From positions 720,925-784,924 of the forward strand of contig BQJR01000001.1 of assembly GCA_021604805.1 (NCBI GenBank): a stretch of 64,000 nucleotides of DNA. Direction: 5' to 3'. The DNA comes from Planctomycetota bacterium. Lineage in GTDB: Bacteria; Planctomycetota; B15-G4. Positions 1,491 to 34,348 of this stretch are shown piece after piece (the stretch's first letter is position 1; the number at the start of each line of letters is the position of its first letter). The position numbers and the translations under genes are program-made. The notes under the pieces are model-generated. The model searched no databases, was not told where the DNA came from, and was given only the letters and a program-made list of their open reading frames with translations.

Positions 1491-1520
1491 TTGATCGGAG
1501 ACGGGCCGCTCGAATACATT
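1491..1520 (+). promoter_or_regulatory. Putative sigma70 promoter of the aconitase gene, TTGATC-N18-TACATT, with an inverted repeat around the -10 box
   Basis: TTGATC at 1491-1496 and TACATT at 1515-1520, 36 nt before ATG 1557. CCGCTC (1506-1511) and GAGCGG (1521-1526) flank the -10. Confidence 0.5.
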
Positions 1521-1556
1521 GAGCGGTCTTCGCCCCGTCCCGCCGGTGCCACTCCC

Positions 1557-3824
1557 ATGACTGATCTCGCCCCGATTTCCGCGCTCTACGACCGCCTCGA
1601 ATCCCTCCACGCGAAGATTCGCGAGCGCCTCGGGCGCGGCCTCACGCTGGCTGAGAAGATCCTCTACGCGCACCTCGCCGACCCCGACGGCGAGCTCCCC
1701 GAGCGCGGCAAGACCTACGCCGACCTGCAGCCCGATCGCGTGGCCATGCAAGACGCCACCGCACAGATGGCGCTGCTGCAGTTCGCCATGACGGGTCGCA
1801 GCGAGGCGGCCGTGCCGAGCACCGTGCACTGCGACCACCTGATCCGCGCACGCCTCGGCGCCGACAAAGACCTTGCCGTGGCCAACGACGAGAACGCCGA
1901 GGTCTACGCGTTCCTCAAGAGCGCGTCGGCCAAGTACGGCCTCGGCTTCTGGGAGCCGGGCGCCGGGATCATCCACCAGGTCGTGCTCGAGAACTACGCC
2001 TTCCCCGGCGGCCTGATGATCGGCACCGACAGTCACACGCCGAACGCCGGCGGCCTCGGCATGCTCGCCATCGGTGTCGGCGGCGCCGACGCGATGGAAG
2101 TCATGGCTGGCCTGCCCTTCGGCGTGCGCTGGCCCAAGCTCATCGGCGTGAAGCTCACCGGCAAGCTCGACGGTTGGAGCTCCCCGAAGGACGTGATCCT
2201 CAAGGTCTGCGAGCTGCTCACGGTGAAGGGCGGCACGGGCGCCATCGTGGAGTACTTCGGCGAAGGCACGCAGAGCATCTCCTGCACCGGCAAGGGCACG
2301 ATCTGCAACATGGGCGCGGAGCACGGCGCCACCACCAGCACCTTCCCCTTCGACGAGTCGATGGCGCGCTACCTCGAAGCCACCGGGCGCAAGGATGTCG
2401 CCGAGCTGGCCCGCAAGCACGCCGCCGCCCTGCGCGCCGACGACGACGTGGACGCCGACCCGAGCAAGTACTTCGACCAAGTGCTCGAGATCGACCTCAA
2501 CACGCTGCCGCCGATGGTGGTGGGTCCGCACACGCCCGACCGCGCACGCAACCTCGACGCGCTCAAGGACGAAGCCGCCGACGAAGGCTGGCCCGCCGAG
2601 CTCAAAGCCGCGCTCATCGGCTCGTGCACGAACAGCTCCTACGAAGACATGGAGCGCGCGGCGAGCGTGGCGCGCCAGGCCAGCGCCAAGGGCCTCAAGG
2701 TGCGCACGCCGCTGATGGTCACGCCCGGCAGCACGCGCGTCGACGAGACGATCCGTCGCGACGGGCAGATGCAGGCGCTGCAGGAGATCAACGCCACGGT
2801 GCTCGCGAACGCCTGCGGCCCGTGCATCGGCCAGTGGCAGCGCGACGACATCAAGAAGGGCGACGTCAACTCGATCATCACCTCCTTCAACCGCAACTTC
2901 AGCGGTCGCAACGACGGCAACCACTCCACGCTCGCGTTCATCTCGAGCCCCGAAGTGGTGGTCGCCATGGCGCTCGCCGGACGCCTCGACTTCGACCCGC
3001 GCCGCGACACGCTCGACACACCCGACGGCCCGGTGAAGCTCGACCCGCCCACCGGCCTCGAGCTGCCGCAGATGGGTTTCGCCGCCACCGACCGCGGTTA
3101 CGTGGCCCCGCCGAGCGACCCGAGCAGCGTGGACCTCGACGTGACCGAAGGCAGCAAGCGCCTGCAGCTGCTCGAACCCTTCGACGCGCCGCGCAACGAA
3201 CAGTTCGTCGACATGCCGCTGTTGCTCAAGGTGGAAGGCAAGTGCACCACTGACCACATCTCGGCGGCCGGGCCGTGGCTGCGCTTCCGCGGTCACCTCG
3301 AGAACATCTCCGACAACATGTACATCGGCGCGACGAACGCGTTCACCGGCGAGCAAGGCAAGGTCACGGATGCGCTCGACGGCACGCCCAGCTTGGCGAT
3401 CCCCGATGTCGCGCGGCACTACAAGGCCGAGGGCCTCAACTGGGTGGTCGTCGGCGACGTGAACTACGGCGAGGGTTCCTCGCGCGAACACGCCGCCATG
3501 TCTCCGCGCTTCCTGGGTTGCCGCGCCGTCGTCGCGCGCAGCTTCGCGCGCATCGCCGAGACCAACCTCAAGAAGCAGGGCGTGTTGGCGCTGGTGTTCG
3601 CCGATCAGCGCGACTGGGACAAGATCCAGGAAGGCGACCGCTTCGCCATCGAAGGTCTCGACGAACTCGCACCCGGCTCCACCGTCACGCTGCAAGTCAC
3701 GCACGCCGGCGGCGGCAGCGACACGATCCCCACCACGCACACGCTCAGCGAGCTGCAGATCGCGTGGTTCCGCGCGGGCTCGGCGCTGAACTACCTGCGC
3801 AACGGCGAGGGCGTCACGGCCTGA
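1557..3824 (+). CDS. acnA: Aconitate hydratase (mitochondrial-type/AcnA-like, 755 aa)
   Basis: Motifs [32 protein letters not shown], the 4Fe-4S ligands IGSCTNSS and [21 protein letters not shown] and [12 protein letters not shown]. Start moved to ATG 1557. Confidence 0.96.
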
Positions 3825-3828
3825 GGCT

Positions 3829-6150
3829 TCAGCGCGCGGGGAACCGCTGACACCACGCGCAGTCGTCGTCGACGAAGAGGCTCGTGGTGCCGGCGTCGGG
3901 GTCGTGGTCCACGTAGCCGAGTTCCGCGAGTTGCTCGAGCAGCTCGGGGTCCTCGGTGGCGCCGCCGGCCAGACCACGCGCGGGCGCCAGCGCGAGCCAG
4001 TCGATGAGTCGCGCGCGCAGCTCGGCGGCCAGCTCGGGCTCGAGCTCCGCCAGGTCGTGCAGGCAGTCGGGGTCCGCCTGCACGTCGTAGAGCTCAACTT
4101 GGTGCAGCTCGCGACCGCGCACCGAGGGGCGCGGGTGGTGCGCCTTGAGCGCCATCACGAGCAGGTGACGACCGAAGCGCACGCTCGCGGCGCGACTGCT
4201 CGCGCCGAGTTGGAACAGCGGGCGTTGGCGTCCGCTGCGATCCAGTTCCTGGAGCAGGGACTCGCCGGGGAAGGGCAGGTCGGGCAAGCCTGCGAGATCG
4301 AGCAGGGTGCGCCCGAGGCCGAGCGGGCTGAGCGGGGTGTCGCTGCGCACCCCCACCGGCACGCCGGGCCCGGCCAGCATCAGCGGTACGTGCAAGCTGC
4401 CGGGCGTGAGGCCTGCGTGGTCGAAGAACACGTCTTGCTCGCCGAGTGCCTCGCCGTGATCGCCCACCAGGGCCACGATGGCTTCGTCGAAGCGCGAGTG
4501 TTGGAGCAGGCGTTCGAGTTGCGCGTCGAGGTAGCGCACTTCGGCGCGGTAGGCGGCGCGCGGGAACTCGAGGTCGCGCAGGCCTGCGATCTCGCGCGGG
4601 AGCACCGCGTCGCTGGGCGGCGCGGGGTCGCTCAGGAAGCGCTCGTCGAAGGGGTCGCGGTCGTCGGGGTACTCGCGCGCGGTCCAGTGATCGGGCGCGT
4701 CGTAGGGCCAGTGCGCATCGAAGGCGTGGAACCACACGAAGAGCGGACGGCCGTCGGCTTCGGGCAGCCACTCGAGCAACTGATCCACGCTCCGCTCGGC
4801 GCGCAGCGGTTTGTTCGGTGCCCAGATCATGCGGTCGAAACCTTGGCCGAGGCCGCTGCCTTCGTGCCCGAGGTGCTTGGTCGAGAGCACGGCGTAGGTG
4901 ACGTAGCCGGCTTCCGCGAAGCGCTCGGCGAGCGTGCTCGCTGTTTCGTTCAGCGGCCGACGGTTCACCACGATGCCGGTGTCGCGCGGGTGCATGCCGG
5001 TCATCAGCGCCACGTGCGCGGGGTTCGTGGAGTTCGTGGGCGACCAAGCTTGGCTGAACAACACGCCGCCTTCGGCCAGACGATCGAGCGCGGGCGTGGC
5101 CACCTGCACGCGTCCGTCTAGGGCGCCGACGTGATCCCCGCGGTGCGTGTCCGACGTGATCAACAACACCGGCGGCGGGCGCTGCCCCGGCACCACGATC
5201 GCGGCCTCAGCCAGCCCCCACGCCGCCTCCCCCTGCGAGCGGAGTGAAAAACGTAACCGGACGCGCCGCCCGGCGTAGGCATCGAGGCCGACCTCGAGCT
5301 GCTGCCAAGCCTCGCTCGGCTGCAGCTCGCCCGCCCACAACATCTCGGGCTCGCCGCCTTCGGTCGACAGCGACACGTCGAGACTCGCAGGCGCACTGGC
5401 CAACATCAGACTGCCCGGCTGCACGAGCGCGCAGCGCAGCTCGGCGCCTTCGGGCACGAGCACGTCGGCGAAGAGATCGCGACCGCTCACCAGGCCTTCG
5501 CCGCTGCGACCCTGCGCGCCCGCGATGATCATGGCGGGCGCACCCGCGGGGTCGGGCAAGCGATCGGCGAGCGGCGCCTGCTCCAGCTCCACGAAGAGCA
5601 GGCCCGCGTTGCGGTTCGCGCCGCGCAAGACCACGCGCAGTGTGTCGCCCACGGCGCCCGCTCCCAGCGCGCGCGGCGCGAGCAGATCGACCTCGGCGGC
5701 GTAGGGCTCGCTGGACTGCTCCAGGTGCACGACCTCGGAGTGCATGATCGCGCGGCCGTCGCGCAGCACCGAGGCCAGCAACCAGCCCGAGCCCTGGAAG
5801 CTCGTGACCAGTCGCAAACGGTTGATGCGGTCCACCGGGAACTCGCCCGCGCGCTCCAGGATCAGGTCTCCGTCGGCTTCCACGGCGCGCAGCTGCAGAC
5901 GCGGCGGACCACCCGAGCCCGCGGGACGCAACGAGGAGTTCGGCACCTGCAGCGACCACGCGGGCAGGTCGTGCGCGAACTCGAAGAGCGCCAAGCGTTG
6001 CGCGACGGGTTGTGGCGCGCCCGGTTCCGGTTGCAGGTCGAGGCGCAGGGTGCGCCCCGGGCGGTCGGGCTCGGTGCCGCAAGCCAGCGCGAGGCTGAGC
6101 AACGCCATCACGCTCACCGCGCGCGCTGTGTGTGTGCGAGCAGTCGTCAT
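3829..6150 (-). CDS. Sulfatase-fold (alkaline phosphatase superfamily) lipoprotein 1, T-N-P-A-H variant (773 aa)
   Basis: Lipobox LSLALAC, an N-terminal beta-rich region, then LLITSDTHRGDH, PTNSTNPAHVALMTG, WFHAFDAHWPY, LVGDHGE and C-terminal LAELGY...CAWCQR. The ATG overlaps the upstream stop (ATGA). Confidence 0.85.
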   Translation of the reverse strand: MTTARTHTARAVSVMALLSLALACGTEPDRPGRTLRLDLQPEPGAPQPVAQRLALFEFAHDLPAWSLQVPNSSLRPAGSGGPPRLQLRAVEADGDLILERAGEFPVDRINRLRLVTSFQGSGWLLASVLRDGRAIMHSEVVHLEQSSEPYAAEVDLLAPRALGAGAVGDTLRVVLRGANRNAGLLFVELEQAPLADRLPDPAGAPAMIIAGAQGRSGEGLVSGRDLFADVLVPEGAELRCALVQPGSLMLASAPASLDVSLSTEGGEPEMLWAGELQPSEAWQQLEVGLDAYAGRRVRLRFSLRSQGEAAWGLAEAAIVVPGQRPPPVLLITSDTHRGDHVGALDGRVQVATPALDRLAEGGVLFSQAWSPTNSTNPAHVALMTGMHPRDTGIVVNRRPLNETASTLAERFAEAGYVTYAVLSTKHLGHEGSGLGQGFDRMIWAPNKPLRAERSVDQLLEWLPEADGRPLFVWFHAFDAHWPYDAPDHWTAREYPDDRDPFDERFLSDPAPPSDAVLPREIAGLRDLEFPRAAYRAEVRYLDAQLERLLQHSRFDEAIVALVGDHGEALGEQDVFFDHAGLTPGSLHVPLMLAGPGVPVGVRSDTPLSPLGLGRTLLDLAGLPDLPFPGESLLQELDRSGRQRPLFQLGASSRAASVRFGRHLLVMALKAHHPRPSVRGRELHQVELYDVQADPDCLHDLAELEPELAAELRARLIDWLALAPARGLAGGATEDPELLEQLAELGYVDHDPDAGTTSLFVDDDCAWCQRFPAR

Positions 6151-8495
6151 CGGGTGTCGAAGCGGGCGCACCAGGCGCAGTCGTCGGGTTGCCACAGCGC
6201 GTCGGCATCGAGACCGCCGCCGACCGGCGCCACGTAGCCCAGCGCGGCGAGTTCTTCGAGCTGCGCTGCGTCGTGGTCGAGCGTGTCGCGCCAGGGCAGG
6301 GCGCGTCGCTGCGCCAACCAGTCGAGCACCAGGGCGCGCAGGCGCGCGGCGTCGTCGAAACGTTCGTCCACCAGGTTGTGCGCGGCCTCGGGGTCGGTCG
6401 AGAGGTCGTAGAGTTCGACCTCGTGCGCCACGTGTTGCAGCGCCATGTTCGGCAACGCGCGATCGACCAAACTTAGCACCAGGAACAAGTCCTCGTGCTG
6501 CACCGTGGCCGACGCGCCGAAGGACTCGATCGCGAAGCGCGGCGCGGCGCGGCCCGCGCGCGCGGCCGTCGGCAGCGCACGACCTGGGAACGCTTGCGCC
6601 GTCAGACCGCTCAGGTCGAGCAAGCTGCGACCGAGGTCGAGGTGGCTCACCGGGCTCGCCACGACCTCACCTGCCGACACCCCGGGTCCCGCGAGCACCA
6701 GCGGCACGTGCAGCGTCTTGGGGTAAGCCCCGATGTGATTGAAGTACACGCCGTTCTCGCCGAGCAGCTCGCCGTGATCCGACACGAAGGCGATCAGTGC
6801 GTCGGACAGACGCGGGTGCGCGAGGAAGGCGCCGAGGCGCGCGTCTTGCTCCTCGATCTCGGCGCGATACATCGCGCGCGCCCAGTCGAGTTCACGCAGC
6901 CCGGTCAGCTCGGGAGGCAACAGTTGGGTGGGCACGGGTTCGGGCAACGCGGGGTCGAAGGCGTCGCGCGCGGGATCCCACTGGCGCGCGGCGGCGGTGT
7001 CCGGCGGCGTGTACGGCGTGTGCGCGTCGAACACGTGCAGCCACACGAAGAGCGGGCGGTCGTGCAGCTCGTCGAGCCAAGTGCTGAGGATCGGGAGCGT
7101 TTCTGTGCTCGGACGCTGCGGCGTGTTCGTGGGCCAACTGATGCGATCGAAACCCTGTCCGAGCCCGCTGCCCGGCGGCCCCAGATGACGCGTACTGAGC
7201 GCCGCCACGCAGGTGTAGCCGGCGCTGGCGAAGGACTCGGCGAGCGTGGCGGCGGCGGCGCCCACGCCGTCGTAGTTGCTGAGCACGCCGGTGTCGCGCG
7301 GCGACGTGCCGGTCATCAGCGCCACGTGCGAAGGGTTCGTGTTGTTCACCGAGGTGTAAGCGTCGAGGTAGCGCGTGCCGCGCGCGGCGAGCGCGTCGAG
7401 CACCGGCGTGGAGAGCGACACGCCTTGTTCGGCGTAGCCCACGTGATCCGCGCGGTGCGTGTCACTCGTGATCAACACGGTCACCGGCGGACGCGCGCGC
7501 GGCACCCACACCTGCGGCGCGCTCACCAGGCAAGCCAACGAGGTGCCCGCCGCCGCGTGCGCCTCGCTCTGCAAGGAGAGTTCGAGTCGCTTCGGCGAGC
7601 TCGACGCGGGCAAGGTCAACTCGAGCGGCGTCCAGCGATCCACACTCGGCAGCAGTTCGTGTTCGACGAGCAACTCGCGGCCGCTGTCCGTGAGCAGCTC
7701 CACGCGCAGCACGGCGCCCTGCGGTGCCACGGCCGCCAGCTCGCTCGTCCACGCGACATCGAACTGCACGCGGGCGTCGTGCGGGAGCGCGAGCTCAGTT
7801 TGCAGCGCGCGCCCCTGCAACAGTCCCACGGCCGGTCGGGCTTGATCCCCCACCACCACGAGTTCGGCCTGCGCGGCGGGATCGGGCAGGCGGGCGGCGC
7901 GCGGTTCGTCCACGAGCGCCACGTCGCGCAGGGCGAAGCGTCGGTAACTGCCGAGGAAGCGCAGGCGCAGGGCGTCGAAGGGAGCGGCGGAACGTAGCGC
8001 GGCCGGCAGGTCCACCGACACGTTCACCAGACGATCGAGCGTGTCGATGCTCGGCGCACGCAAGCTGTTCACCACGGCGCCGTCGCGCAGCAGATCGACC
8101 ACCATGCCGAGCCCGCCGCCGCCGTCGGCTGACAACCAGACTTCCACGCGGTCGAAGGTCGCCGGGTCGTAGTGCCCGGCGCGCGTGAGTTGCACCACGC
8201 GTTCGCGACGCCCCGCGCCCACCACGAGCATCGGCCGGCTGCCCTGCGGCAACTCGGGCCCTTCGACCACGATGCGCTTCGAGGGCGACTCGACCTCCCA
8301 CTCGGTGCGCTGCTCGAGCAGATCGAAGCGCTCCACGACGCGCCGTTCGGGCGCGCTCGCGCCGCCCGCCGCCAGGTTCCAGCGGCCACGCTGCAGCTCG
8401 GGTGCGGACGCGCGCTCGCCGCACGCCCACAGGACGCACAGCGCGAAGGCCGCCCACGCGAGCTGCGGCGCGCGGCGCTTCAGCGTGCGCACCAC
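6147..8495 (-). CDS. Sulfatase-fold lipoprotein 2, T-N-P-S-H variant (782 aa)
   Basis: Lipobox LCVLWAC; LITSDTHRADH, NNTNPSHVALMTG, WLHVFDAHTPY, FVSDHGE, LAALGY...CAWCAR. Confidence 0.85.
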   Translation of the reverse strand: MVRTLKRRAPQLAWAAFALCVLWACGERASAPELQRGRWNLAAGGASAPERRVVERFDLLEQRTEWEVESPSKRIVVEGPELPQGSRPMLVVGAGRRERVVQLTRAGHYDPATFDRVEVWLSADGGGGLGMVVDLLRDGAVVNSLRAPSIDTLDRLVNVSVDLPAALRSAAPFDALRLRFLGSYRRFALRDVALVDEPRAARLPDPAAQAELVVVGDQARPAVGLLQGRALQTELALPHDARVQFDVAWTSELAAVAPQGAVLRVELLTDSGRELLVEHELLPSVDRWTPLELTLPASSSPKRLELSLQSEAHAAAGTSLACLVSAPQVWVPRARPPVTVLITSDTHRADHVGYAEQGVSLSTPVLDALAARGTRYLDAYTSVNNTNPSHVALMTGTSPRDTGVLSNYDGVGAAAATLAESFASAGYTCVAALSTRHLGPPGSGLGQGFDRISWPTNTPQRPSTETLPILSTWLDELHDRPLFVWLHVFDAHTPYTPPDTAAARQWDPARDAFDPALPEPVPTQLLPPELTGLRELDWARAMYRAEIEEQDARLGAFLAHPRLSDALIAFVSDHGELLGENGVYFNHIGAYPKTLHVPLVLAGPGVSAGEVVASPVSHLDLGRSLLDLSGLTAQAFPGRALPTAARAGRAAPRFAIESFGASATVQHEDLFLVLSLVDRALPNMALQHVAHEVELYDLSTDPEAAHNLVDERFDDAARLRALVLDWLAQRRALPWRDTLDHDAAQLEELAALGYVAPVGGGLDADALWQPDDCAWCARFDTR

Positions 8496-10855
8496 GGGCA
8501 GGCCTCTTCGTCGAGCAACCGCGTGAAGGGCGGCGGCAAGGGCCCCACGTAACCCAGGCTGAGGCGCTCACGCATGATGGAGTCGTCGAGCACGCCGAGT
8601 TCATCGAGACGCGTGTCGGGTTGCGCCGCGAGCCAGGCGGTGAGTTCCGCGCGCAGACCTTCGCCTTCGCTGTCGAGTGTCGAGGAGTCGAGCTCGTCGG
8701 CAGCCAGCGCGTGCAGCGCCTGCGGGTCGACCGACAAGTCGAAGAGCTCGGCGGTGAAGGCTTGGCGCCGTTCAGGGAGGTGCCCGAGTCGCCGCGGCCG
8801 CAACTGCACGACCAGGTGACGCTCGCCGCGCGTGATCGACGCCGACAGGCCGTCGCTCTCCACGGCGAAGCGCGGTTCCAGTTCATCGCGCGGTCGCAGC
8901 AAGGAGCGCCCGGGGAACGCTTGGTCGCCGAGTCCCGCGAGGTCGAGCAAGCTGCGCCCGAGGTCGAGCGTGCTCACCGGGTCGTTGCGTCGCGCGCCCT
9001 GTTCGAGCTGGGGCGAGGCCAGGATCAGCGGGACGTGCAACACGCCGGGATACAAGCCGAGGGACTTGAACCAGATCTGGTGCTCGCCGAGCGCGAGGCC
9101 GTGTGAGCCCACGAAGGCGCGCGGCGCGGCGCGCACGCGAGGGTGACTCAGGAGTGGAGCCAAGGCCGCGTCGAGTTCGCTGATCTCGCCCTTGTAGCGT
9201 GCGCGCAAGAAGTTGAGGTCGTGCTCGGCGCGATACGACTCCGGCATCGCCACCAGGATGCGACCGCGCGTCGGAAGTTGGTGCGCCCCGTCACGATCGA
9301 GCGGGTCGTAGTGCAGCGCGAGCGACTCGGGTGCCGGCTCGTGCGGCCAGCGCGCGTCGCTCAGGGCCAGCCACAGGAAGAGCGGCGTGTCCGCTTGCTC
9401 GGCGAGCTGCGCGCGGGCTTCGTCCACGACACGCTGCGCAGACCAGGCGGTGCTGTCCGCGGGCGCGACGACCTCGGCGAAGCCCTGACCGAGCCCGCTC
9501 GAGCCGGGCGTGAGGTGCTGCGAGCCCACCACGGCCACGCAGCGGTAACCGGCATGGGCGAAGGCCTCGGCGAGCGTGCGCGCCTCCGGCCGCAGATGCT
9601 GGCCCTCGTTCACCACGCCTGTGTCGCGCGCGCTGAGGCCGGTGTGGAGCGCGGCGAGCGCGGGCGCGGAGTGGTTCGTGGGCGCCCGCGCGTCGGCGAA
9701 GAACAGCCCCTCGGCGGCGAGTGCGTCGAGCTGCGGTGTGGGCATGTCGACGCCGCGGAAGGCCAGCCCGAGGTGGTCGCCCCGGTGCGCATCACTGCTC
9801 ACGAGCAGCACGAGTGGCGCGACGTCCGGCGCCGCAGGCAAGCTGAGCCTGGGTTCGGCGAGCAACACGGCGCGCGAACTCCCTGCGCGGAAACGCAACT
9901 CGACCTCGCGCGCCGTGTCGCTGACCGCGAGCGGGCTGAGCTGCCAGTCGTCGCCGGGATCCAGGGGCAAGACGTGGTCGATCCAGCTGTCGTCGCCCGC
10001 GCCGACGGGCCGCGTCCGCAACACGAGCTCGTTGCTCTCCGCCTGCGCGATCGAGTGCGGCGACGTGACGAGCGCGTAGGGCAACTCGAAGCCGTGCCCG
10101 GCAGGCAAGGGCGCGTCGAGGCGCGCGCTCGATTCCCCGAAGAGCACGCCGGCGCGCAACCAACGCGTGCCGCGCGCCACGAGCTCGGGCGCGCTGAGCG
10201 TCGGCAATCCGGCGCCGAGCTGACTCGTCTCCCAACTCAAGGCGGCGAGACCCAAGCGACGCGTGGAGCCGGTGCAGCTCATGACCACGCGATCATGCTC
10301 GGGGCGTTCGACCGGCAGCGGGATCCTGTGCGCCACGAGTTGCTCGGCTTGACGCATCACGACCGGCGCGCCCACCGCCACGCGTTCGTCGCCGCGCCAG
10401 AGTTCGAGGCTCGCGACCCCCGCGCCCTCGAAGGCTGCGGTGACGCGCAACACGTCGGCGCGCTCGGGTGCCGGGCCGGCGTGCACGAGCTCGAGTTCGT
10501 GACGGCCCTGCGGGGCGCGGATCACGATCGCGACCTCTTTCTTGGCCGGCAAGCGCTGACGTGCACTGCGCAGCGCGACGATCTCCCAACCCGGCATGAC
10601 CGCGCCGGACGCGGGCAGCTCGAACTGCGCCAAGGATTCGCCGGGCGGCACCTCCGCGAGACCGCTCACCAGCTGCCAGTGCAGCGCCGGCGCCGGCTGC
10701 GTGAGGTCGCTCAGCGGCAGGACGTGATCGTCGGGAGCTGTCGCCGACGAGTCCGTGCGTGACGGCGTGGTGCCCGACGTGCGTTCGCCCGCGTCGCCGC
10801 AAGCCCCGAGCACGCAGAGCGCCAAGCTCAATCCCAGCGTCGACAGCGCGCGCAT
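8480..10855 (-). CDS. Sulfatase-fold lipoprotein 3 with a degenerate active site (791 aa)
   Basis: The real start is MRALSTLGLSLALCVLGAC at ATG 10855; the longer ORF-track extension is shadow sequence overlapping the next gene. Motifs LVSSDAHRGDH, PTNHSAPALAALHTG, WLALSDARWPH, FVGSHG, LSLGY...CPWCAR. Confidence 0.8.
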   Translation of the reverse strand: MRALSTLGLSLALCVLGACGDAGERTSGTTPSRTDSSATAPDDHVLPLSDLTQPAPALHWQLVSGLAEVPPGESLAQFELPASGAVMPGWEIVALRSARQRLPAKKEVAIVIRAPQGRHELELVHAGPAPERADVLRVTAAFEGAGVASLELWRGDERVAVGAPVVMRQAEQLVAHRIPLPVERPEHDRVVMSCTGSTRRLGLAALSWETSQLGAGLPTLSAPELVARGTRWLRAGVLFGESSARLDAPLPAGHGFELPYALVTSPHSIAQAESNELVLRTRPVGAGDDSWIDHVLPLDPGDDWQLSPLAVSDTAREVELRFRAGSSRAVLLAEPRLSLPAAPDVAPLVLLVSSDAHRGDHLGLAFRGVDMPTPQLDALAAEGLFFADARAPTNHSAPALAALHTGLSARDTGVVNEGQHLRPEARTLAEAFAHAGYRCVAVVGSQHLTPGSSGLGQGFAEVVAPADSTAWSAQRVVDEARAQLAEQADTPLFLWLALSDARWPHEPAPESLALHYDPLDRDGAHQLPTRGRILVAMPESYRAEHDLNFLRARYKGEISELDAALAPLLSHPRVRAAPRAFVGSHGLALGEHQIWFKSLGLYPGVLHVPLILASPQLEQGARRNDPVSTLDLGRSLLDLAGLGDQAFPGRSLLRPRDELEPRFAVESDGLSASITRGERHLVVQLRPRRLGHLPERRQAFTAELFDLSVDPQALHALAADELDSSTLDSEGEGLRAELTAWLAAQPDTRLDELGVLDDSIMRERLSLGYVGPLPPPFTRLLDEEACPWCAR

Positions 10856-12681
10856 GCGTCGGGGATCCAGAGAGAGGAGGGAGTTTCGGAGGGTGCCAAG
10901 TAGCCGAGCTCGGCGAGACGATCCAAGCGTTCCTGATCCTCGCTTGCCGAGCCCGCGAGATCGAGACCTTGCGCGGCTTGCAACCAGGCGATCAGCCGCG
11001 CACGCAGCTGCCGCGCGTGTTCGGGTTGTTGTTCGGAGAGCTCGGTTTCGCAGCGCGGGTCGTCGCGCAGATCGTAGAGCCGCAGCTCGTGGGCGAGGAA
11101 GCGCTCCGACATCACGGGCTGTTGCTCGTCGCGCAGCTGGAGGATCAGGTGCCAGCCCTCGTACGTGAGCGAAGCCGAGAACCCGTGGGCCGAGAGCGCG
11201 AAGCGCGGCGCCGCGCGCGCGCTCACGGCAGACGTAGCAGGCTCGGCCAGACGGCGCAGATCGCGGCCGGGCCAGGTCACGTCGGACACAGCCCCCCACT
11301 TGAGCAAGGTCGCGCCCAGGTCGGCGTGGCTGACGGGTTCGCTCACACGCACACCGGCAGGCATCCCCGGCCCGACGAGCAGCAGCGGCACGTGCAGCGT
11401 GTCGGGGAACAGGCCGGCGTGACCGAAGTGGATGCCATGTGCGCCCAGCGATTCGCCGTGGTCGGCGGTGAGCGCCACGGCGGCGTCGCGCAGAGCCGGG
11501 TGCTCGAGGAGCGTGCCGAGTTCTTCGTCGAGGAAGGACACCTCGGCTTTGTAGAGCGCGCGCAGGTAGTCGAGGTCGCGCACCTTGCGATAGGGCTCGG
11601 GCAGCACCTCGGCGGACACGTCGAGCGGCGGCAGCGTCGGGTCGGCCGGGTCCCGCTCGGGTGACCAGTAGTGTTCGCGCCAACGCTGCGGCGCGCGGTA
11701 CGGGCGGTGCGCATCGAAGAGATGCACCCACACGAAGAGCGGCTCGTCGCCGACTTCCGTGAGCCAGTGTTGCGCGAGCGACAAGCTCGGCGGCGCCGCA
11801 CGCTCTCCTCTGGGCGTGGGCCAACTCATGCGCTCGAAGCCCTGCCCCAGCCCGCTCTCGGGATCACCGAGATGTCGCGCCGACACGAGCGCCAGCGTGC
11901 GGAAGCCCTGCGCCGCGAAGTGTTCGGCGAGCGTGTCGGCACGAGCGCTGAGCGGCACGCTGTTGTCGTCGATGCCGAGATCGCGCGGGTGCACGCCGGT
12001 GAACAAGCTCATGTGCGAGGGGTTGGTGACGTTCGTCGGCGCGAGGCAGTCTTCGAAGAGCACGCCGCGCGCGGCGAGCGTGTCGAGCGTGGGTGTGAGC
12101 GGCGCGTCGACCGCGCCCGACGCACCCAGGTGATCGGCGCGATGCGTGTCGCTCGTGATCAGCAGCACGCGGCGCGCGCGGCGGCCCGCGGCGAGCAGCG
12201 CGCTCTCGGCCACGAGCACCTGCTCGCCGTCGCGCCCACTCGGCAGATGCAGCTCCAACTCGAGCGAGCTGCCTGCGGGCGCAGCCAATTGCAGTCGCCG
12301 CGCGTACCAGCTCGGGTCGCCCGGCGCCACGGGGAGCAACACGCGGCGGCTCGTCCATTCACCTCCGGGGGCGCGCTCGCGCAGCTCGATCTCGAGGTCG
12401 GCGCCCGGCGGCAAAGCCTGCTCAGGACGCCCCAGCGCGAAACCCAGGCTGGCGGCTGGGGGCAGCTCGTGCAACGTGAGTCGCAGGCTCTGCCCCGCGC
12501 TCAGCGTGCTGGCTCGACGCACTTCGCCCGACGCCTCACCGAGGCTCAGCAGCGCCTGCTCGGCGTTCCAGTGCAGCGCCCGATAGCTGGCGGGACGCTC
12601 GAGCGCGGGATCGGAGCAGGCCTGCGCCAGCAGCGCGAGCACGAGCAACAGAGCTGGGAGGGCGCGCACCGCCAACTCCAT
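10828..12681 (-). CDS. Sulfatase-fold lipoprotein 4, T-N-P-S-H variant (about 617 aa)
   Basis: Lipobox LLAQAC; LITSDTHRADH, PTNVTNPSHMSLFTG, WVHLFDAHRPY, LTADHGE, LAELGY...CARCRR. Start is ATG 12681 or GTG 12696. Confidence 0.85.
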   Translation of the reverse strand: MELAVRALPALLLVLALLAQACSDPALERPASYRALHWNAEQALLSLGEASGEVRRASTLSAGQSLRLTLHELPPAASLGFALGRPEQALPPGADLEIELRERAPGGEWTSRRVLLPVAPGDPSWYARRLQLAAPAGSSLELELHLPSGRDGEQVLVAESALLAAGRRARRVLLITSDTHRADHLGASGAVDAPLTPTLDTLAARGVLFEDCLAPTNVTNPSHMSLFTGVHPRDLGIDDNSVPLSARADTLAEHFAAQGFRTLALVSARHLGDPESGLGQGFERMSWPTPRGERAAPPSLSLAQHWLTEVGDEPLFVWVHLFDAHRPYRAPQRWREHYWSPERDPADPTLPPLDVSAEVLPEPYRKVRDLDYLRALYKAEVSFLDEELGTLLEHPALRDAAVALTADHGESLGAHGIHFGHAGLFPDTLHVPLLLVGPGMPAGVRVSEPVSHADLGATLLKWGAVSDVTWPGRDLRRLAEPATSAVSARAAPRFALSAHGFSASLTYEGWHLILQLRDEQQPVMSERFLAHELRLYDLRDDPRCETELSEQQPEHARQLRARLIAWLQAAQGLDLAGSASEDQERLDRLAELGYLAPSETPSSLWIPDACARCRRWD

Positions 12682-12703
12682 CACGACCACGAGCACGAAC
12701 GAG

Positions 12704-12830: not shown

Positions 12831-13172
12831 TCAGCCCATCACGGCCTTGGTCGTGATCGCGTGCACGCCGACGACCGGCAGGTAGATCGTCACGGCCACC
12901 AGGGCAGCCACGCGCGCGTGCTGCAGCGGCGCGCGCTTGTTGATCCAGAGCAGGCACAGGCCCGTGAGGCCGATCTTGATCAGCGCGAAGAGCTGCGGGC
13001 CGGTGGTGTCGAGCAGCCAGCCCATGGCCGGATTCACTTCGCGTGCCACGGAGAGCCCCATGAGGCGCGTGGTCGCGAAGGCGTCGATGCAGACCAGGAA
13101 CAGCACGAACCAGCTCACGGTGGAGATCGGGGCGCCCAGCAGGCGCGGCGTCGTGGCACGTGAGATGGTCAT
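12831..13172 (-). CDS. DUF5658-like small membrane protein (113 aa)
   Basis: Pattern D-x-x-x-T...(R)EVNPAM...LF.LIK with three to four hydrophobic segments. Start taken at MTISRATT (ATG 13172). Confidence 0.7.
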   Translation of the reverse strand: MTISRATTPRLLGAPISTVSWFVLFLVCIDAFATTRLMGLSVAREVNPAMGWLLDTTGPQLFALIKIGLTGLCLLWINKRAPLQHARVAALVAVTIYLPVVGVHAITTKAVMG

Positions 13173-13346
13173 GGCAGCTCCAGCGGTGACGAGGGACAGC
13201 CTGCCCCATCGTCTGCGCAGCGGGACGACTTGACCGACTTCTGCCAAGCCGCGCAGCGCCGCCTGGAGCGGGCCTTCCGTACGGCAGCGCGCCGCCTGGG
13301 CCCCCCGCTTCTCGCCCGGCTCTCGTGGCCGAGCGGGGCCCTCGCC

Positions 13347-13760
13347 TCAGTGCCCTTCGCTGACCGCGTTGCGGTTCCAGGAGGGCACGCGCACGAGCAC
13401 CGGCTTGCTGCCGTCGGGCACGGCCTGGCAACCCAAGCGCGACTTGTCGGTGAGGCCCGGCGCGAGGTCGAGCATGTCTTCCTCGGCGTCGGTGGACTCG
13501 TTGCAACTGTCGCCGCCCGACTCCACGATCACGTGGCAGGTGCTGCAGGCGCACACGCCGCCGCAGGCGTGGTCGATGTCGATGCCGTTGCCGCAAGCGA
13601 TGTCGAGGATCGAGCCGGGCAGACCTTCGTGGCTGTAAGGCAGCTTGGCCGGGTCGACCTCCACCAGGCGTTCTTCGTCGCCCAACTGGAACACGATCTC
13701 GTAGGGCTTGCTGGGCAGCGGGGTTTCGGCGGAGTCGATGTAAGGGTTCTTGCCGGCCAT
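13347..13760 (-). CDS. fdx: 2Fe-2S ferredoxin, ISC/adrenodoxin type (137 aa)
   Basis: HACGGVCACSTCHV...EEDMLDLAPGLTDKSRLGCQ is the adrenodoxin-type C-x5-C-x2-C...C motif. Start is MAGKNPYI. Confidence 0.92.
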   Translation of the reverse strand: MAGKNPYIDSAETPLPSKPYEIVFQLGDEERLVEVDPAKLPYSHEGLPGSILDIACGNGIDIDHACGGVCACSTCHVIVESGGDSCNESTDAEEDMLDLAPGLTDKSRLGCQAVPDGSKPVLVRVPSWNRNAVSEGH

Positions 13761-13814
13761 GTGAGCTTCCGAGATCTGGGGGACGCGTACCTGCGCGCGG
13801 TCGACGAGTCTAGC

Positions 13815-13848
13815 CGGGGCGTGAGTCGCGCGCACGACTCACGCCCCG
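13815..13848. repeat. Perfect 14-bp inverted repeat upstream of fdx
   Basis: CGGGGCGTGAGTCG-cgcgca-CGACTCACGCCCCG. On the minus strand it is followed by TAGACT (13812-13807), a plausible -10 box for fdx. Confidence 0.75.
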
Positions 13849-28790: not shown

Positions 28791-28916
28791 ATGAAGATCA
28801 GAACGCGCAACAGCAACGTGAAGCGCTCGCGCAAGACGGGCTTCCGCACGCGCATGAAGACCGCCAGCGGCCGCAACATCATCCGCCGCCGTCGTGCGCG
28901 GGGTCGCAGCCTCTAA
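28791..28916 (+). CDS. rpmH: 50S ribosomal protein L34 (41 aa; absent from the ORF track)
   Basis: Manual translation [41 protein letters not shown] contains the L34 signature KR.R..GFR.RM.T..GR.I..RRR..GR. Confidence 0.93.
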
Positions 28917-28929
28917 GACCCCTGCTCTC

Positions 28930-30999
28930 ATGAGCACCCCCACGCCGCTGCCCATGACGCGCGCCGAGTTGCGCGCCCGCGGCTGGGATGAAGTCGACGT
29001 CATCCTGATCTCGGGTGACGCGTACGTGGACCACGCGTCCTTCGCCGCGGCTCTGATCGGCCGCGCGCTCGAGTCGGCCGGCTTCCGCGTGGCGATCCTG
29101 GCGCAGCCCGACTGGCGCAGCGTCGACGCGTTCCGCTCGCTGGGGCGCCCGCGCCTGTGTTTCGGCGTCACCGCCGGCAACATGGACTCGATGCTCAACC
29201 ACTACACGGCCAATCGTCGGCCGCGAAGTGACGACGCCTACTCACCCGACGGCGCCGCCGGTCATCGCCCCGACCGCGCCACGAACGTGTACGCGCAGCG
29301 CTGCCGCGAGGCCTTCCGAGGCGTGCCCGTGATCGCGGGTGGCGTGGAAGCCTCGCTGCGCCGCGTGGCGCACTACGACTACTGGTCCGACATGGTGCGC
29401 CCGTCGATCCTGGTGTCGAGCAAGGCCGACCTCGTGGTCTTCGGCATGGGCGAGCGCGCCATCGTGGAGATCTGCAACCGCTTGCGCGACGGGGAATCAC
29501 CGCGTGAGTTGCGCGACATCCGCGGCACCGCCTACCTGCTCGGCAAGAACGACGCGCTGCCCGCCTTCGCCGAGCGCATGCGCGCCGAGGGCACTCCCGA
29601 CCCGAGCGCGAGTTCCGACGACGGCCCCGACGCAGCCACCGTGGAACTCCCCAGCTTCGAGACCGTGCGCGACGACAAGTGCGCCTTCTCCATCGCCACC
29701 CGCTGGATCCACCGCGAGACGAACCCTTTCAACGCACGCCGCCTCGTGCAGCGTCACGGCGAGCGGCTCGTGGTGCAGAACCCACCGAGCCTGCCGCTCG
29801 ACACCGAACAGATGGACGCGCTCTACGACGCCGCCTTCACGCGCGCGCGTCATCCGAGCTACGGCGAGCGACGCATCCCCGCCGAGGACATGATCGCCAA
29901 CAGCGTCACGATCATGCGCGGCTGCTTCGGCGGCTGCAGCTTCTGCTCGATCACCACGCACCAAGGTCGCGTGATCCAGTCGCGCAGCCAGGAGTCGGTG
30001 ATCAAAGAGGTCGACGCCGTGGCCGCCGACGAGCGCTTCTCCGGCGTGGTCAGCGACCTCGGCGGCCCCACGGCGAACATGTACAAGATGCGCTGCACGT
30101 CGCCGGACACCGAGGCCAAGTGCCGGCGCTTGTCCTGCGTGCACCCGAGCATCTGCAAGCACCTCGGCACCGATCACGCGCCCACCATCGACCTGTTGAA
30201 AGCCGCGCGCGAACGCCCTGGCATCCGTCACGTGCACGTGGCGTCCGGCGTGCGCATGGACCTCGCCGAGCGCTCGCCCGAGTACCTGGCCGAGATGGCG
30301 GCGCATCACGTGAGCGGTCATCTCAAGGTGGCGCCGGAACACGTGTCGGAGCGCGTGCTCAAGGTGATGAAGAAGCCCGAGCAGGCCAGCTTCGAGCGCT
30401 TCGCGGAAGCCTTCGGCAAGGCCAGCGAAGCCGCGGGCAAGGAACAGTACCTCGTGCCCTACTTCATCGCCGGACACCCGGGCAGCGATCTCGACGCGAT
30501 GATCGAGTTGGCCGAGTTCCTCAAAGGCGCCGGCTACAAGCCGCGTCAGGTGCAAGACTTCGTGCCCGCGCCGATGGACCTGGCCACGAGCATCTTCCAC
30601 ACCGGCCTCGACCCGCACACGCTGCAGCCCACGCCCGTGGCGCGCAAGCTGCGTGACCGCAAACAGCAGCGCGCGCTCATGCAGTTCTTCAAGCCCGAGA
30701 ACTGGTTCGAGGTGCACGACGCGCTGGTCAAAGCCAAGCGTCGCGACCTGATCGGACACGGTCCGCAATGCCTGATCCGCCCCGAGCCTCCCAAGCAGGC
30801 GCTCGCCGCACGCGCCGCCAAGCGCAGCGGCGAACTCGATCGCTATGTGCACGAGGAGGACGCGCTGGGACCGCGCGCGTCGCGGGGCAAAGCCGGCTCG
30901 CGCGGCAGCTCCGGTCCCCGGGGCCACGCTGGCGCGCACGGCACGACGAGCCCACGCCCCAAGAAGGCTTCGCGCCGACGGGGTGGGCCACGGCGCTAG
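28930..30999 (+). CDS. ygiQ: YgiQ family (UPF0313) radical SAM protein (689 aa)
   Basis: [37 protein letters not shown], CxxxCxxC in [22 protein letters not shown] and PYFIAGHPG. Confidence 0.93.
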
Positions 31000-31091
31000 A
31001 CGCTCCCCCGCGTCTCCGACTAGTCTGTGAAGTCGACCCGCAGATCGCCGTCACCCACACCGTGGCGCGCAACCTTTCCGGAGCACGCACG

Positions 31092-33404
31092 ATGTCGAGC
31101 ATCTCCTCGCGCCGCCGCTTGGCGTGCGTGCTCGCGCTCACCGCGCTCGCCTCGCTGGGCGGACTCGGCATCGCTTGCGGCGACGACGCACCCGCCGAGC
31201 CCGACACGACGGCGCGCCTCGCCGTGCTGCAGCGCGACCTGAGCCTGGAACGTGATCCCAGCGCCCCCGCCCCGCAGCCCTTCTCCTATCACTGGGACGC
31301 CGCCAGCCTGCGCACCAACTGGCTCCCCGGCGAAGGCACCCTGCGCAAGCTCCAGACGCAGGAGCTGCAAGTGCGCGGCACGCCGAACGCCGAGCTCGTG
31401 AGCCCGGCCAGCGCCACGCTCGACGCCGAGATCCATCACCACCTCGTGGTGCATCTGCGCAGTGCGCGCGCGCTCGACGTCACGGTGTACTGGCGTGCGC
31501 GCGAAGCGCAGCCCTTTGCCGAGAGCCGTCGCACCGTGGCCGAAACACTGCCCGCGAGCGAGGCCACGCAGATCTGGTCGCTGCCGCTGGCGAACCTGCG
31601 CGGCTGGAAGCACCAGCGCGAAGGCGGACCGGGTGCCGGCTGGACCAAGGGCGCCGACGCCGCCGAGGGCCTGCAAGCCCTGAGGCTCGTGTTCGTCGAC
31701 GCGGAGAACCCCGGCAGCACCCCGGCCGACGTGTTCATCGAGTCGATCGCGCTCACGTCGAGCTTCGATCGCGAATCCGACCAGGAACTGAGCCTCGCGC
31801 GCATGGGTCGCGAGCACGTGTTCCAGCGCGGCGTCGCGTTGTCGGTGCCCGACGCCGCCAGCCTCAGCTTGATGCCCGGGCCGCAGGACCGGCTGCGCTT
31901 CTCACTCGCCGTGGCGGGCGCGCGCGAGCCCGTCACCCTGAGTTTGCGCGACGAGGCCGGCAAGCTCGCGCCGCAGTCGTGGGAGTTGCAGCCGCGTGCC
32001 CCGTGGCTGAACGTGGCGCTCGAGTTGGGCGCGCTGGCCGGCGAGAACGCACGACTGCACTTCGAGACGAGCGGCGCGCAGAGCGGCGGCGCAGTGATGA
32101 TCGGTCAACTGATGCACCTCGCGCCGCCGACCACGCCACGACCGAACGTGGTGCTCTACGTGGAAGACACCTTGCGCGCGGACCGGCTGCCGAGCTACGG
32201 CTACGCGCTGCCCACCGCGCCGCACTTGAGTCGCATGGCCGACGCGGGTGTGGTCTTCGAGGACCTCTTCGCGGCCTCGAACTGGACGCGACCGTCGACG
32301 ACCTCCTTGCTGACCGCGCTCGACCCCGTCACGCACGGCAATCACGACGACTACGACCGCATCGCCGAGAGCCTCGTGACCTTGCCCGAGTTGCTGGCCG
32401 AGGCCGGCTACGTGACCGCGTCGCTCGTGACGAACTACCACGCCGGCGCGTGGTCCGGGCTCGACCAAGGTTTCGACGTGGTGCACGAGCCGCCGGCCGG
32501 CGGCGCGTCCACGCTGAACTCCACGCTCACCTCCGGTGTCGTCGGCGACGCGCTCGAAGCGCTGCTCGAGGAACACCAGGGCGAGCAACTGTTCGTGTAC
32601 GCGCACAGCCTCGATCCGCACCAGCCCTACACGCCCACCGCCGAAGACCTGCGCGTCTTCCACGATCCGCCCGAAGGCGCCGCCGGCACGCACAAGCAGG
32701 CCAGCCCTTCGGTGCGCTACGACGCCGAGATCCTGTTCAACGACCACCAACTCGCGCGCCTCGACGCGCAACTCGAGAGCCACGGGCTGCTCGAGGACAC
32801 GCTCTTCGTGTTCACCTCCGACCACGGCGAGGGTTTCATGGAGCACGGTCAGCGTTCACACCGCACCGACATGTTCCAAGAGGAGTTGCACGTGCCGTGG
32901 ATCCTGCGTTGGCCGGCCCAGCTCCGCGCGGGTCAACGCGTGAGCGCGCCCGCAGGTCACGTGGACATCGCCCCCACGCTCGCCGGCTTGCTCGGGCTGG
33001 ACGCGCCGTCGAACTGGCGCGGCCGGGATCTCTCGCAGCTTGCGCGCAGCCCGAACGCGCGCGTCGATGCCACGCCGCTGATGAGCTTCACCACCTACGG
33101 CACGCGCCCCGAGGGTGGCCACAAGCAAGCGCTCGCCGTGCGCCAGGGCGCCTACAAACTCACCGCCTGGGTGAATGAGCGCGACGAGATCCTGCCGCGC
33201 GCGCTCTACCGCCTCGACCTCGATCCGGGTGAGCACACGAATCTGCTCGAAGCGTCCGAGCACGCCGAGCAGCGTGATCGCATGCTCAGCTGGGCCCGCG
33301 ACGACCTCGCCCGCGGACGTGCCAGCGTGGAAGCGCGTCCGGCCAATCACATGGACCCGGCCATGCGCGCCTGGCTGCAGGAGATGGGTTACCTAGGCAA
33401 ATGA
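31092..33404 (+). CDS. Sulfatase-fold lipoprotein 5, T-R-P-S-T variant (770 aa)
   Basis: Lipobox GLGIAC; VVLYVEDTLRADRL, ASNWTRPSTTSLLT, YAHSLDPHQPY, FTSDHGE and C-terminal LQEMGY. It has no CxxC tail. Confidence 0.85.
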   Translation: MSSISSRRRLACVLALTALASLGGLGIACGDDAPAEPDTTARLAVLQRDLSLERDPSAPAPQPFSYHWDAASLRTNWLPGEGTLRKLQTQELQVRGTPNAELVSPASATLDAEIHHHLVVHLRSARALDVTVYWRAREAQPFAESRRTVAETLPASEATQIWSLPLANLRGWKHQREGGPGAGWTKGADAAEGLQALRLVFVDAENPGSTPADVFIESIALTSSFDRESDQELSLARMGREHVFQRGVALSVPDAASLSLMPGPQDRLRFSLAVAGAREPVTLSLRDEAGKLAPQSWELQPRAPWLNVALELGALAGENARLHFETSGAQSGGAVMIGQLMHLAPPTTPRPNVVLYVEDTLRADRLPSYGYALPTAPHLSRMADAGVVFEDLFAASNWTRPSTTSLLTALDPVTHGNHDDYDRIAESLVTLPELLAEAGYVTASLVTNYHAGAWSGLDQGFDVVHEPPAGGASTLNSTLTSGVVGDALEALLEEHQGEQLFVYAHSLDPHQPYTPTAEDLRVFHDPPEGAAGTHKQASPSVRYDAEILFNDHQLARLDAQLESHGLLEDTLFVFTSDHGEGFMEHGQRSHRTDMFQEELHVPWILRWPAQLRAGQRVSAPAGHVDIAPTLAGLLGLDAPSNWRGRDLSQLARSPNARVDATPLMSFTTYGTRPEGGHKQALAVRQGAYKLTAWVNERDEILPRALYRLDLDPGEHTNLLEASEHAEQRDRMLSWARDDLARGRASVEARPANHMDPAMRAWLQEMGYLGK

Positions 33405-33468: not shown

Positions 33469-34221
33469 TCAGTTGCGGGCGTGGGCCTCGCGCGTCTTGG
33501 CGTCTTTCAGGAAGGCGTACCAGGAACCCAGCGCGCAGACGACGAGGCCGCGCCAACCGTCGAGCACACCGCGCTGCAGCAAGTACATGCGCGCGAAGCG
33601 GAACGGCGGCCCGAGCAGCAGCTTGCCGAAACCCACGCGCTTGCCGGCGGCCACGCGCCGCTCAGCGATCGTGGTCGTGTAGGCGTTGATCTTGCTGAGG
33701 TGCTCGGCCAGGTCCACATAGGGTTCGTGCAGCAGGCGTCCGGCGAGGCGACCGGTGCTGCCGGTGACTTCCATGTGGTCGTGGGGTTCCACGCCACCCG
33801 AACGCCCGGCGCCGCGACGCAACAGGCGCAGGCGCCATTCGGGGCTCCAGCCGCAGTGGTCGATCCAGCCGCCGAGGTAGCGGCTGCGGCGGTTGAGTTC
33901 GAAGCCGGCGTGGCCTTGGTCGGCGCCGGCGAGCACGCGGGCCAGCGCGGCGGCCAACTCGCCGTCGAGCCATTCGTCGGCGTCGAGGCAGAGCACCCAG
34001 TCTTGGGTCGCGTGGTCGAGCGCGATCTGGCGCTGCCCCACGAAGCCCGTCCAAGGGTGCTCGACGATCTCGGCGCCAGCCTTGCGGGCCAGTTCCAAGG
34101 TGGCGTCGGTGCTGCCCGAGTCGATCACCAGCAGCTGGTCGGCGAGCTCCGCCACCGAGGCGAGGCAGCGCGGCAGGTCGCGCTCCTCGTTGCAGGTCAA
34201 GATCGTGACGCTGAGTCCCAT
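33469..34221 (-). CDS. Glycosyltransferase family 2 (WaaE/KdtX-like beta-glucosyltransferase, 250 aa)
   Basis: LSVTILTCNEE, VIDSGSTDAT, DWVLCLDADE and LLH...HLSKINAYTT. Confidence 0.92.
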   Translation of the reverse strand: MGLSVTILTCNEERDLPRCLASVAELADQLLVIDSGSTDATLELARKAGAEIVEHPWTGFVGQRQIALDHATQDWVLCLDADEWLDGELAAALARVLAGADQGHAGFELNRRSRYLGGWIDHCGWSPEWRLRLLRRGAGRSGGVEPHDHMEVTGSTGRLAGRLLHEPYVDLAEHLSKINAYTTTIAERRVAAGKRVGFGKLLLGPPFRFARMYLLQRGVLDGWRGLVVCALGSWYAFLKDAKTREAHARN

Positions 34222-34289
34222 CGGCGCATGATCCAGCGCGCCGGGTCGCAGATGCAAGCGCTGCGCGTCGGGAGGCGGCCGCATGGTCT

Positions 34290-34317
34290 TTGCCGCCAGA
34301 CGACTCGACGGTAGGAT
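34290..34317 (+). promoter_or_regulatory. Putative promoter of the GlmL-like operon, TTGCCG-N16-TAGGAT
   Basis: Lies in the divergent gap between GT2 and the operon; SD GGGAG at 34338-34342 precedes ATG 34349. Confidence 0.45.
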
Positions 34318-34348
34318 GGGCGATCTGCGTGCCCCCCGGGAGAATCCG

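Follow-up and report, generated by a model that had tools for sequence, protein, structure and literature searches.

An array of sulfatase-fold lipoproteins with threonine at the formylglycine position, and a conserved dead paralog, in a Planctomycetota bacterium

In a 64,000-nucleotide stretch of DNA from a Planctomycetota bacterium (assembly GCA_021604805.1, contig BQJR01000001.1), called the window below, four successive long open reading frames (ORFs) lie on the minus strand between positions 3829 and 12696. These genes, named g1 to g4 (Table 1), encode lipoproteins with a sulfatase-type catalytic domain, in which g1, g2 and g4 carry a threonine where sulfatases have the residue that is converted to formylglycine (FGly). 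Their third-position G+C is high, as in real genes, the window as a whole having 70% G+C. An earlier note made from the sequence had described four overlapping minus-strand paralogs with a lipobox, a beta-rich N-terminus and a PF00884 domain each, and ORFs, Pfam and AlphaFold2 (AF2) all agree with this description. Coding regions overlap by 4 nt between g1 and g2 (ATGA, the ATG of g1 overlapping the g2 stop codon), by 16 nt between g2 and g3 and by 28 nt between g3 and g4, which suggests a single translationally coupled operon. As the four proteins are just 36–41% identical in pairwise comparison, they are old paralogs and not recent duplicates. Orthologs of g1 were found by tree reconstruction in the related loci L003 (9983-12319) and L012, those of g4 in L003 (5215-7551, 769 aa), L008 (3000-5417) and L009 (3854-6304). 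The lipobox-like signals read LALAC-G in g1, VLWAC-G with an atypical Trp at -2 in g2, VLGAC-G in g3 and LAQAC-S in g4, where a cut by signal peptidase I at AQA is also possible, and lipoprotein signals are conserved across the family.

In overall sequence and fold the catalytic domain is closest to the S1 sulfatases and the phosphonate monoester hydrolases (PMHs). All four proteins pass the PF00884 gathering threshold of 25 bits with 72.5-110.9 bits (E 5e-20 to 1e-31; profile positions 1-300 of 301), g1 with E 9.5e-32 over residues 328-621, and matches to SGSH_C, the sulfatase C-terminal subdomain, are present as well. Searches of the PDB sequences with phmmer and with profiles returned only S1 sulfatases and PMHs, and hhalign against a CxPxR sulfatase from the same genome gave 99.8% probability and an E-value of 2e-28 over 371 columns. 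For g2 a full-length AF2 model was built with 112 homologs (predicted local distance difference test score, pLDDT, 91.5; predicted template modelling score, pTM, 0.92). Since the 50 PDB structures that Foldseek matched best to it comprise only S1 sulfatases and PMHs (E about 1e-21, target-normalised TM-score 0.55-0.68), the scaffold is of the formylglycine sulfatase type, including the C-terminal subdomain with its LYDL..DP motif. With the reference structures (choline sulfatase 6g5z/6fny, S1_16 9fo1, PMH 2vqr/2w8s/4uph and human arylsulfatase A, ARSA, 1auk) the family shares the two-subdomain fold, the Asp of the first metal, the D-H-G motif, the C-terminal LYDL..DP subdomain and the histidines of K-x-H and H-x-P. 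It differs from them in having Thr for the FGly Cys/Ser, His both for the signature Arg and for a sulfate-binding Lys, and Thr for the second Asp of the calcium site. In addition, H347, H487 and D490 are invariant in the family, and its proteins carry an N-terminal stretch of some 300 aa with modules resembling carbohydrate-binding modules (CBMs), a lipid anchor and a C-terminal CxxC tail.

In order to describe the active site we use the residue numbers of g2. Phmmer and hmmsearch alignments to solved sulfatases and the hhalign alignment to the sulfatase of the same genome all set the Thr at the position of the FGly Cys/Ser and the His at that of the signature Arg, so that the segment T-N-P-S-H lies on C/S-T-P-A-R of sulfatases and PMHs. 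The motifs TNPAH, TNPSH, SAPAL and TNPSH are found exactly as the earlier note had read them, and at the formylglycine site. The S1 signature C/S-x-P/A-x-R is absent, as g1, g2 and g4 carry T-x-P-[SA]-H and g3 has SAPAL without the Arg. Among 124 sequences (the four window proteins and 120 database matches) T-x-P-[SA]-H occurs in 123, g3 being the single exception, and the assignment of Thr to the nucleophile position in that note is thereby upheld for the rest of the family. In a conservation alignment of 112 sequences, which are 33-46% identical to g2, 17 catalytic-site columns are 100% invariant: D345, T346, H347, R348, T386, P388, H390, N407, W485, H487, D490, H492, D573, H574, G575, E576 and H587. 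T346 takes the place of the second Asp in the sulfatase 'DD' calcium site. The sulfate-binding lysines of ARSA are K123 and K302; the position equivalent to K302 is H587 in 112/112 sequences, and the family has Ala or Thr for the Lys of K-x-H. Two histidines with counterparts in the sulfatase active site, H437 and H492, are retained. We read these alignments as a nucleophile switch on an S1 scaffold, by which an active site of the formylglycine/calcium type has become one of a putative threonine/zinc type with two metals. According to the authors of SulfAtlas, Thr cannot yield formylglycine and PF00884 mislabels Thr-bearing proteins as sulfatases (PMC5066984).

The nucleophile segment resembles that of the nucleotide pyrophosphatases/phosphodiesterases (NPPs). 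Hhalign against a canonical NPP from the same genome (95% probability, 31% identity, E 3e-8), which covers only 80 columns, pairs D345, T-x-P-x-H and N407 with LDGVR...TFPNH...GIVGN, and both families share the pattern D...T-x-P-x-H-x-x-L-x-T-G-x-x-P-x-x-x-G-I-x-x-N with the Asn 21 residues past the Thr. The remaining NPP domain is unmatched: the metal ligands of the NPP D-x-x-x-H motif and the distal His have no matched counterpart in the family, the PF01663 matches of g1, g2 and g4 comprise just profile positions 1-66 of 342 (25.9-29.8 bits), and NPP lacks the sulfatase C-terminal subdomain that the family possesses. The second half of the active site resembles the phosphoethanolamine (PEtN) transferases EptA and MCR-1, which also have a Thr nucleophile, as do LtaS and OpgB (PF00884). 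Hhalign against E. coli EptA (92% probability, E 7e-7, 263 columns) places L-H487-x-x-D-A-H492-x-P on LHtigsHgP and D-H-G-E...H587 on DHGESLGENGIYL-H, and the motifs L-H-x-x-x-x-H-x-P and D-H-G-E-x-L-G-x-x-G-x-x-x-H, including counterparts of both Zn2 histidines, are common to both. In MCR-1 the ligands are Glu246, Thr285, Asp465 and His466 for Zn1 and His395 and His478 for Zn2 (PMC5175174). Counterparts of all six, as aligned by hhalign, are invariant in the family, a likeness in sequence. Unlike EptA and MCR-1 the family has no polytopic N-terminal membrane domain, only a lipoprotein signal followed by beta-sandwiches, its first metal ligand is Asp and not Glu, its nucleophile motif is the T-x-P of NPPs and sulfatases, and it carries a sulfatase-type C-terminal subdomain.

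On these comparisons the family appears to combine a sulfatase scaffold with an NPP-type nucleophile segment and the second-site His pair of the PEtN-transferase type. The earlier note had compared the proteins with the Thr-nucleophile enzymes of the superfamily; this likeness holds for the nucleophile segment, which aligns with NPP, and for the His pair and DHGE..H, which align with EptA, while membership in NPP, EptA or LtaS does not. We rejected assignment to NPP or EptA, as PDB searches with the nucleophile and DHGE fragments alone still rank sulfatases first, with EptA/MCR only at E ~3e-3 and without any NPP match, and retained the idea that the family may work like these enzymes. The Mn-dependent arylsulfatase EfAS, met through an NCBIfam NF052527 match, was rejected as a precedent because it uses Cys/FGly, and no mapping of the sulfatase Lys/His onto a second metal site was found in PMC3693508.

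One of the four genes departs from this pattern. The g3 protein still has the fold, the N-terminal modules and the CxxC tail at its C-terminus, but seven invariant catalytic residues are gone, namely T386 (Ser), H390 (Leu), H487, H492, D573 (Ser), E576 and H587, so that its key-column string is DHRSPLEHADRSHLS versus DHRTPHNHHDHDHEH. A tree of 102 catalytic domains places g3, on long branches, together with a protein of L008 (5363-7900, with PRPAL and SQGL) and one of L009 (4321-7776, with PRAAA and LQGM). This clade of dead copies, to which the loss of catalytic residues is confined, is the sister of the g2-type clade, and in all three genomes the genes follow each other in the order g4-type, dead copy, g2-type. 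The earlier note had treated all four proteins as one enzyme type, which fails for g3. As a dead member kept across species points to a non-catalytic role within the array, g3 is probably a binding or scaffolding partner, and its conservation suggests a heteromeric arrangement. Only translational coupling and the gene order kept in the three genomes speak for a joint action of g1 to g4, which that note implied by speaking of a system.

N-terminal to the catalytic domain g2 has two beta-sandwiches, for which a separate AF2 model (residues about 30-337, 89 homologs) gave a pLDDT of 89.5. Foldseek matched this model to the tandem CBM22 of a xylanase (4xup), subdomains of reelin repeats, CBM51 pairs, the Bacteroides surface glycan-binding protein SGBP-B and CBM-like domains of Cry/Vip (E 1e-8 to 1e-6), with low TM-scores of about 0.3, as is expected when two domains vary in their relative orientation. 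W288 of g2 (W259 in the N-terminal alignment A3) is invariant, and one more Trp and one Arg are nearly so. The g4 protein falls short of its paralogs, and of its ortholog in L003, by about 150 aa, having the second sandwich and missing the first, which this ortholog possesses; the sequence was truly deleted and no frameshift is involved, because the upstream DUF5658 gene is only 134 nt away. At the extreme C-terminus the motif L-W-x-x-D-D-C-x-W-C-x-R-F is present in g1 to g4, including the dead g3, and in 98/112 family members, with the conserved core D-x-C-x-x-C-x-R-[FW] in the four window proteins. A third Cys within a D-P-x-C motif is found in 102/112 members and is missing from g2 and g3. 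This tail could bind a metal or form a disulfide.

We consider it somewhat probable that the family consists of Thr phosphoesterases which act through a phospho-Thr intermediate, most likely by hydrolysing phosphate esters outside the cytoplasm, be it on glycans or on other organophosphates. The basis for this reading is that Thr cannot become formylglycine, together with the invariant Thr/His/Asp constellation. The four genes would form one operon of envelope-anchored lipoproteins, and in the putatively active members g1, g2 and g4 one or two CBM-like beta-sandwiches are joined to the catalytic domain. A first metal site would be built from D345, the nucleophile T386, D573 and H574, and a second one, as in the PEtN transferases, from H492 and H587 with D490 and H487 nearby, and N407 would play the role of the phosphoryl-binding Asn of NPP. 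Such a threonine/metal site would lead to the phospho-Thr intermediate, and from it we infer a diesterase or monoesterase, and not a sulfatase, whose substrates at the cell surface or in the periplasm would be phosphate-bearing glycans or other organophosphates, with g3 as the putative non-catalytic binding or scaffolding partner of the active members. Several points weigh against this proposal. By hhalign the family lies much nearer to true sulfatases (E 2e-28) than to NPP (3e-8) or EptA (7e-7), the EptA nucleophile segment is out of register in the hhalign alignment, and the PDB sequence and Foldseek matches contain no solved Thr-type structure of the clade. Planctomycetota are known as degraders of sulfated glycans, so that a sulfate substrate would suit their ecology. 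CBM-like folds also serve as protein-binding modules, as in reelin and the Cry/Vip toxins, and the neighbours in the window (aconitase, ferredoxin, DUF5658, M16 peptidases, ABC exporter) hint at neither phosphorus nor glycan metabolism.

The one-for-one match of active-site residues between the family and EptA/MCR-1 in the alignments, the Zn2 His pair included, would also fit a transferase. Like EptA, OpgB and LtaS, the proteins would then take PEtN, phosphoglycerol or a similar head group off a lipid or a glycan that serves as donor and attach it to an envelope glycan, and the CBM-like modules would hold the acceptor. The lipid anchor, by which the enzyme would be held at the membrane, is in line with this, and so are the glycosyltransferases that adjoin family members in other genomes (GT9 in L089, GT1 in L090). 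However, the proteins lack the polytopic membrane domain of known PEtN transferases and of LtaS, the NCBIfam PEtN-transferase models give 18 bits against a cut-off of 500 (NF028537, 17.8 bits, with g2 only), and the array in the window has no adjacent glycan-synthesis genes. We regard transfer as rather unlikely, and as less likely than the hydrolysis that we prefer.

More doubtful is a true sulfatase independent of formylglycine, in which a metal-activated Thr would attack sulfated polysaccharides bound by the CBM-like modules. Such substrates would suit these modules, the nearest relatives in sequence and fold are all sulfatases or PMHs, and H437, H492 and the C-terminal subdomain with LYDL..DP are kept. 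On the other hand, all three of the compared positively charged residues that bind sulfate or FGly have been exchanged, with His390 standing for the Arg, His587 for the Lys and Ala/Thr for the Lys of K-x-H, and the same genome already encodes about 9 CxPxR sulfatases and has genes for the formylglycine-generating enzyme (FGE). Sulfatases with a Thr nucleophile are not known, and the Thr/Ser bimetallo enzymes of the superfamily have only trace sulfatase activity. Of the phosphoesterase, transferase and sulfatase readings this last one is the most exciting and the least likely. Even more improbable is its extended form, in which Planctomycetota would have sulfatases that need no maturation, with a metal-activated Thr on the FGly-sulfatase scaffold and a lipid-anchored multi-paralog complex organised by the dead subunit and the tandem CBM-like modules. 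That all four are non-catalytic glycan- or protein-binding lipoproteins with a retained enzyme fold is hardly credible: g3 clearly is such a protein and pseudoenzymes are common in expanded families, but the invariance of the 17 catalytic-site columns despite 33-46% identity argues for selection on catalysis, and residue loss is restricted to the g3 clade.

With HMMER the family was found in 4114 proteins at E <= 1e-30 among 1.84 billion cluster representatives, the 150 best all below 1e-104, and a scan of one genome per prokaryotic species gave 490 encoding loci. Nearly all of the 80 loci that we kept belong to metagenome-assembled genomes (MAGs) named 'Planctomycetota bacterium', and in an even sample of the phylum 15/301 genomes have a member, including 6/8 genera in the taxonomic family to which the window belongs. 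At no fewer than a dozen loci two to four strong members form an array; L068, for example, has four active copies. A fifth family member of the genome under study is encoded at C2:452853-455276. Public records name the homologs 'sulfatase', 'arylsulfatase', 'arylsulfatase A-like enzyme', 'sulfatase-like hydrolase/transferase' or 'hypothetical protein'; with the defining Cys/Ser, Arg and Lys replaced, the suspicion of mis-annotation voiced in the earlier note is supported. When aligned to the hidden Markov model of the family, about 50 PF00884-like ORFs of the same genome have the Thr nucleophile, mostly with H487, H492 and DHGE, and only about 9 have CxPxR, so that a sulfatase count based on PF00884 would be roughly five-fold too high for this genome. 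FGE has no PF03781 match in the window, as had been noted; this carries no weight as an argument, since there are 10 matches elsewhere in the genome.

That Thr-type PF00884 proteins are not sulfatases is known as a general principle, and a literature search for the TNPSH, TLPSH and TxPxH motifs gave no studied family member. Particular to the present array are an S1-type scaffold with a His pair resembling that of EptA, CBM-like modules in tandem and a dead paralog whose place in the array is conserved. Sulfatase numbers for Planctomycetota and other glycan-degrading phyla are often derived from PF00884 matches, and these numbers, with the ecology drawn from them, may be badly inflated. The family would also offer a natural experiment, a switch of nucleophile and metal site within that branch of the alkaline phosphatase superfamily which holds the sulfatases and PMHs. 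If the family members are indeed phospho-glycan esterases, they would point to an as yet unstudied way in which uncultured Planctomycetota of marine and fresh waters process organic phosphorus or glycans.

Regarding the genomic context, the aconitase gene converges with g1, their stop codons being 4 nt apart. No terminator-like hairpin was found between them, and a scan for promoters and terminators was uninformative in DNA of 70% G+C. The other flank of the array holds genes for DUF5658, a 2Fe-2S ferredoxin, an M16 peptidase, an ABC exporter and a beta-eliminating lyase. Directly upstream of the array, and in its orientation, a small 2Fe-2S ferredoxin gene is followed by one for a DUF5658 membrane protein, and the pair is also found upstream in related MAGs (L003:3949-4966, L088:7526-8385); it could be co-transcribed with the array. 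Clustering of the flanking ORFs of the 80 loci revealed no general conserved functional partner, and synteny with aconitase, ferredoxin (Fer2), DUF5658 and ABC exporter is limited to close relatives. At 13 or more other loci a family gene is directly followed, on the same strand, by a gene whose product, probably a lipoprotein, has about 350 aa, an HExxH motif (HELVHA) and no significant Pfam match. Two homologs of it are encoded in the genome under study, at C2:1148654-1149724 and C1:1083029-1083991, unlinked to the array. In L089 and L090 an unannotated gene of similar size (349 and 356 aa) takes this downstream position.

Table 1. Coordinates of the array, its sites and further genes (positions in the window unless a locus is named).
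Feature	Position	Strand	Description
aconitase gene	1491-3824	+	converges with g1
g1	3829-6150	-	773 aa; lipoprotein, two CBM-like beta-sandwiches and Thr-type sulfatase-fold domain
g1 TNPAH	5014-5028	-	nucleophile motif
g1 DHGE	4450-4461	-	
g1 CxxC	3850-3861	-	
g2	6147-8495	-	782 aa; lipoprotein, architecture as g1; protein chosen for modelling
g2 N-terminal module	7485-8408	-	residues about 30-337; two tandem CBM-like beta-sandwiches
g2 TNPSH	7326-7340	-	nucleophile motif
g2 DHGE	6768-6779	-	
g2 CxxC	6168-6179	-	
g3	8480-10855	-	791 aa; catalytically dead paralog, architecture as g1/g2
g3 SAPAL	9656-9670	-	
g3 SHGL	9095-9106	-	former DHGE
g3 CxxC	8489-8500	-	
g4	10828-12696	-	622 aa counted from GTG; likely start is ATG at 12681, where the earlier note puts the end of the array
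g4 TNPSH	12013-12027	-	nucleophile motif
g4 DHGE	11452-11463	-	
g4 CxxC	10843-10854	-	
ferredoxin/DUF5658 pair	12831-13835	-	immediately upstream of the array
YgiQ-like radical SAM gene	28858-30999		
distant sulfatase-fold gene	30657-33404	+	more distant Thr-type sulfatase-fold lipoprotein
GT2 glycosyltransferase gene	33469-34581	-	
HExxH lipoprotein gene, other loci	L068:10124-11377		also in L032, L033, L037, L040, L053, L059, L060, L070, L071 and L083

The window contains one more distant Thr-type lipoprotein with a sulfatase fold, whose gene sits between those for a YgiQ-like radical SAM protein and a GT2 glycosyltransferase. It has the signal GLGIAC-G, the nucleophile motif T-R-P-S-T, an SDHGE segment and a beta-rich N-terminal region of its own of about 490 aa.

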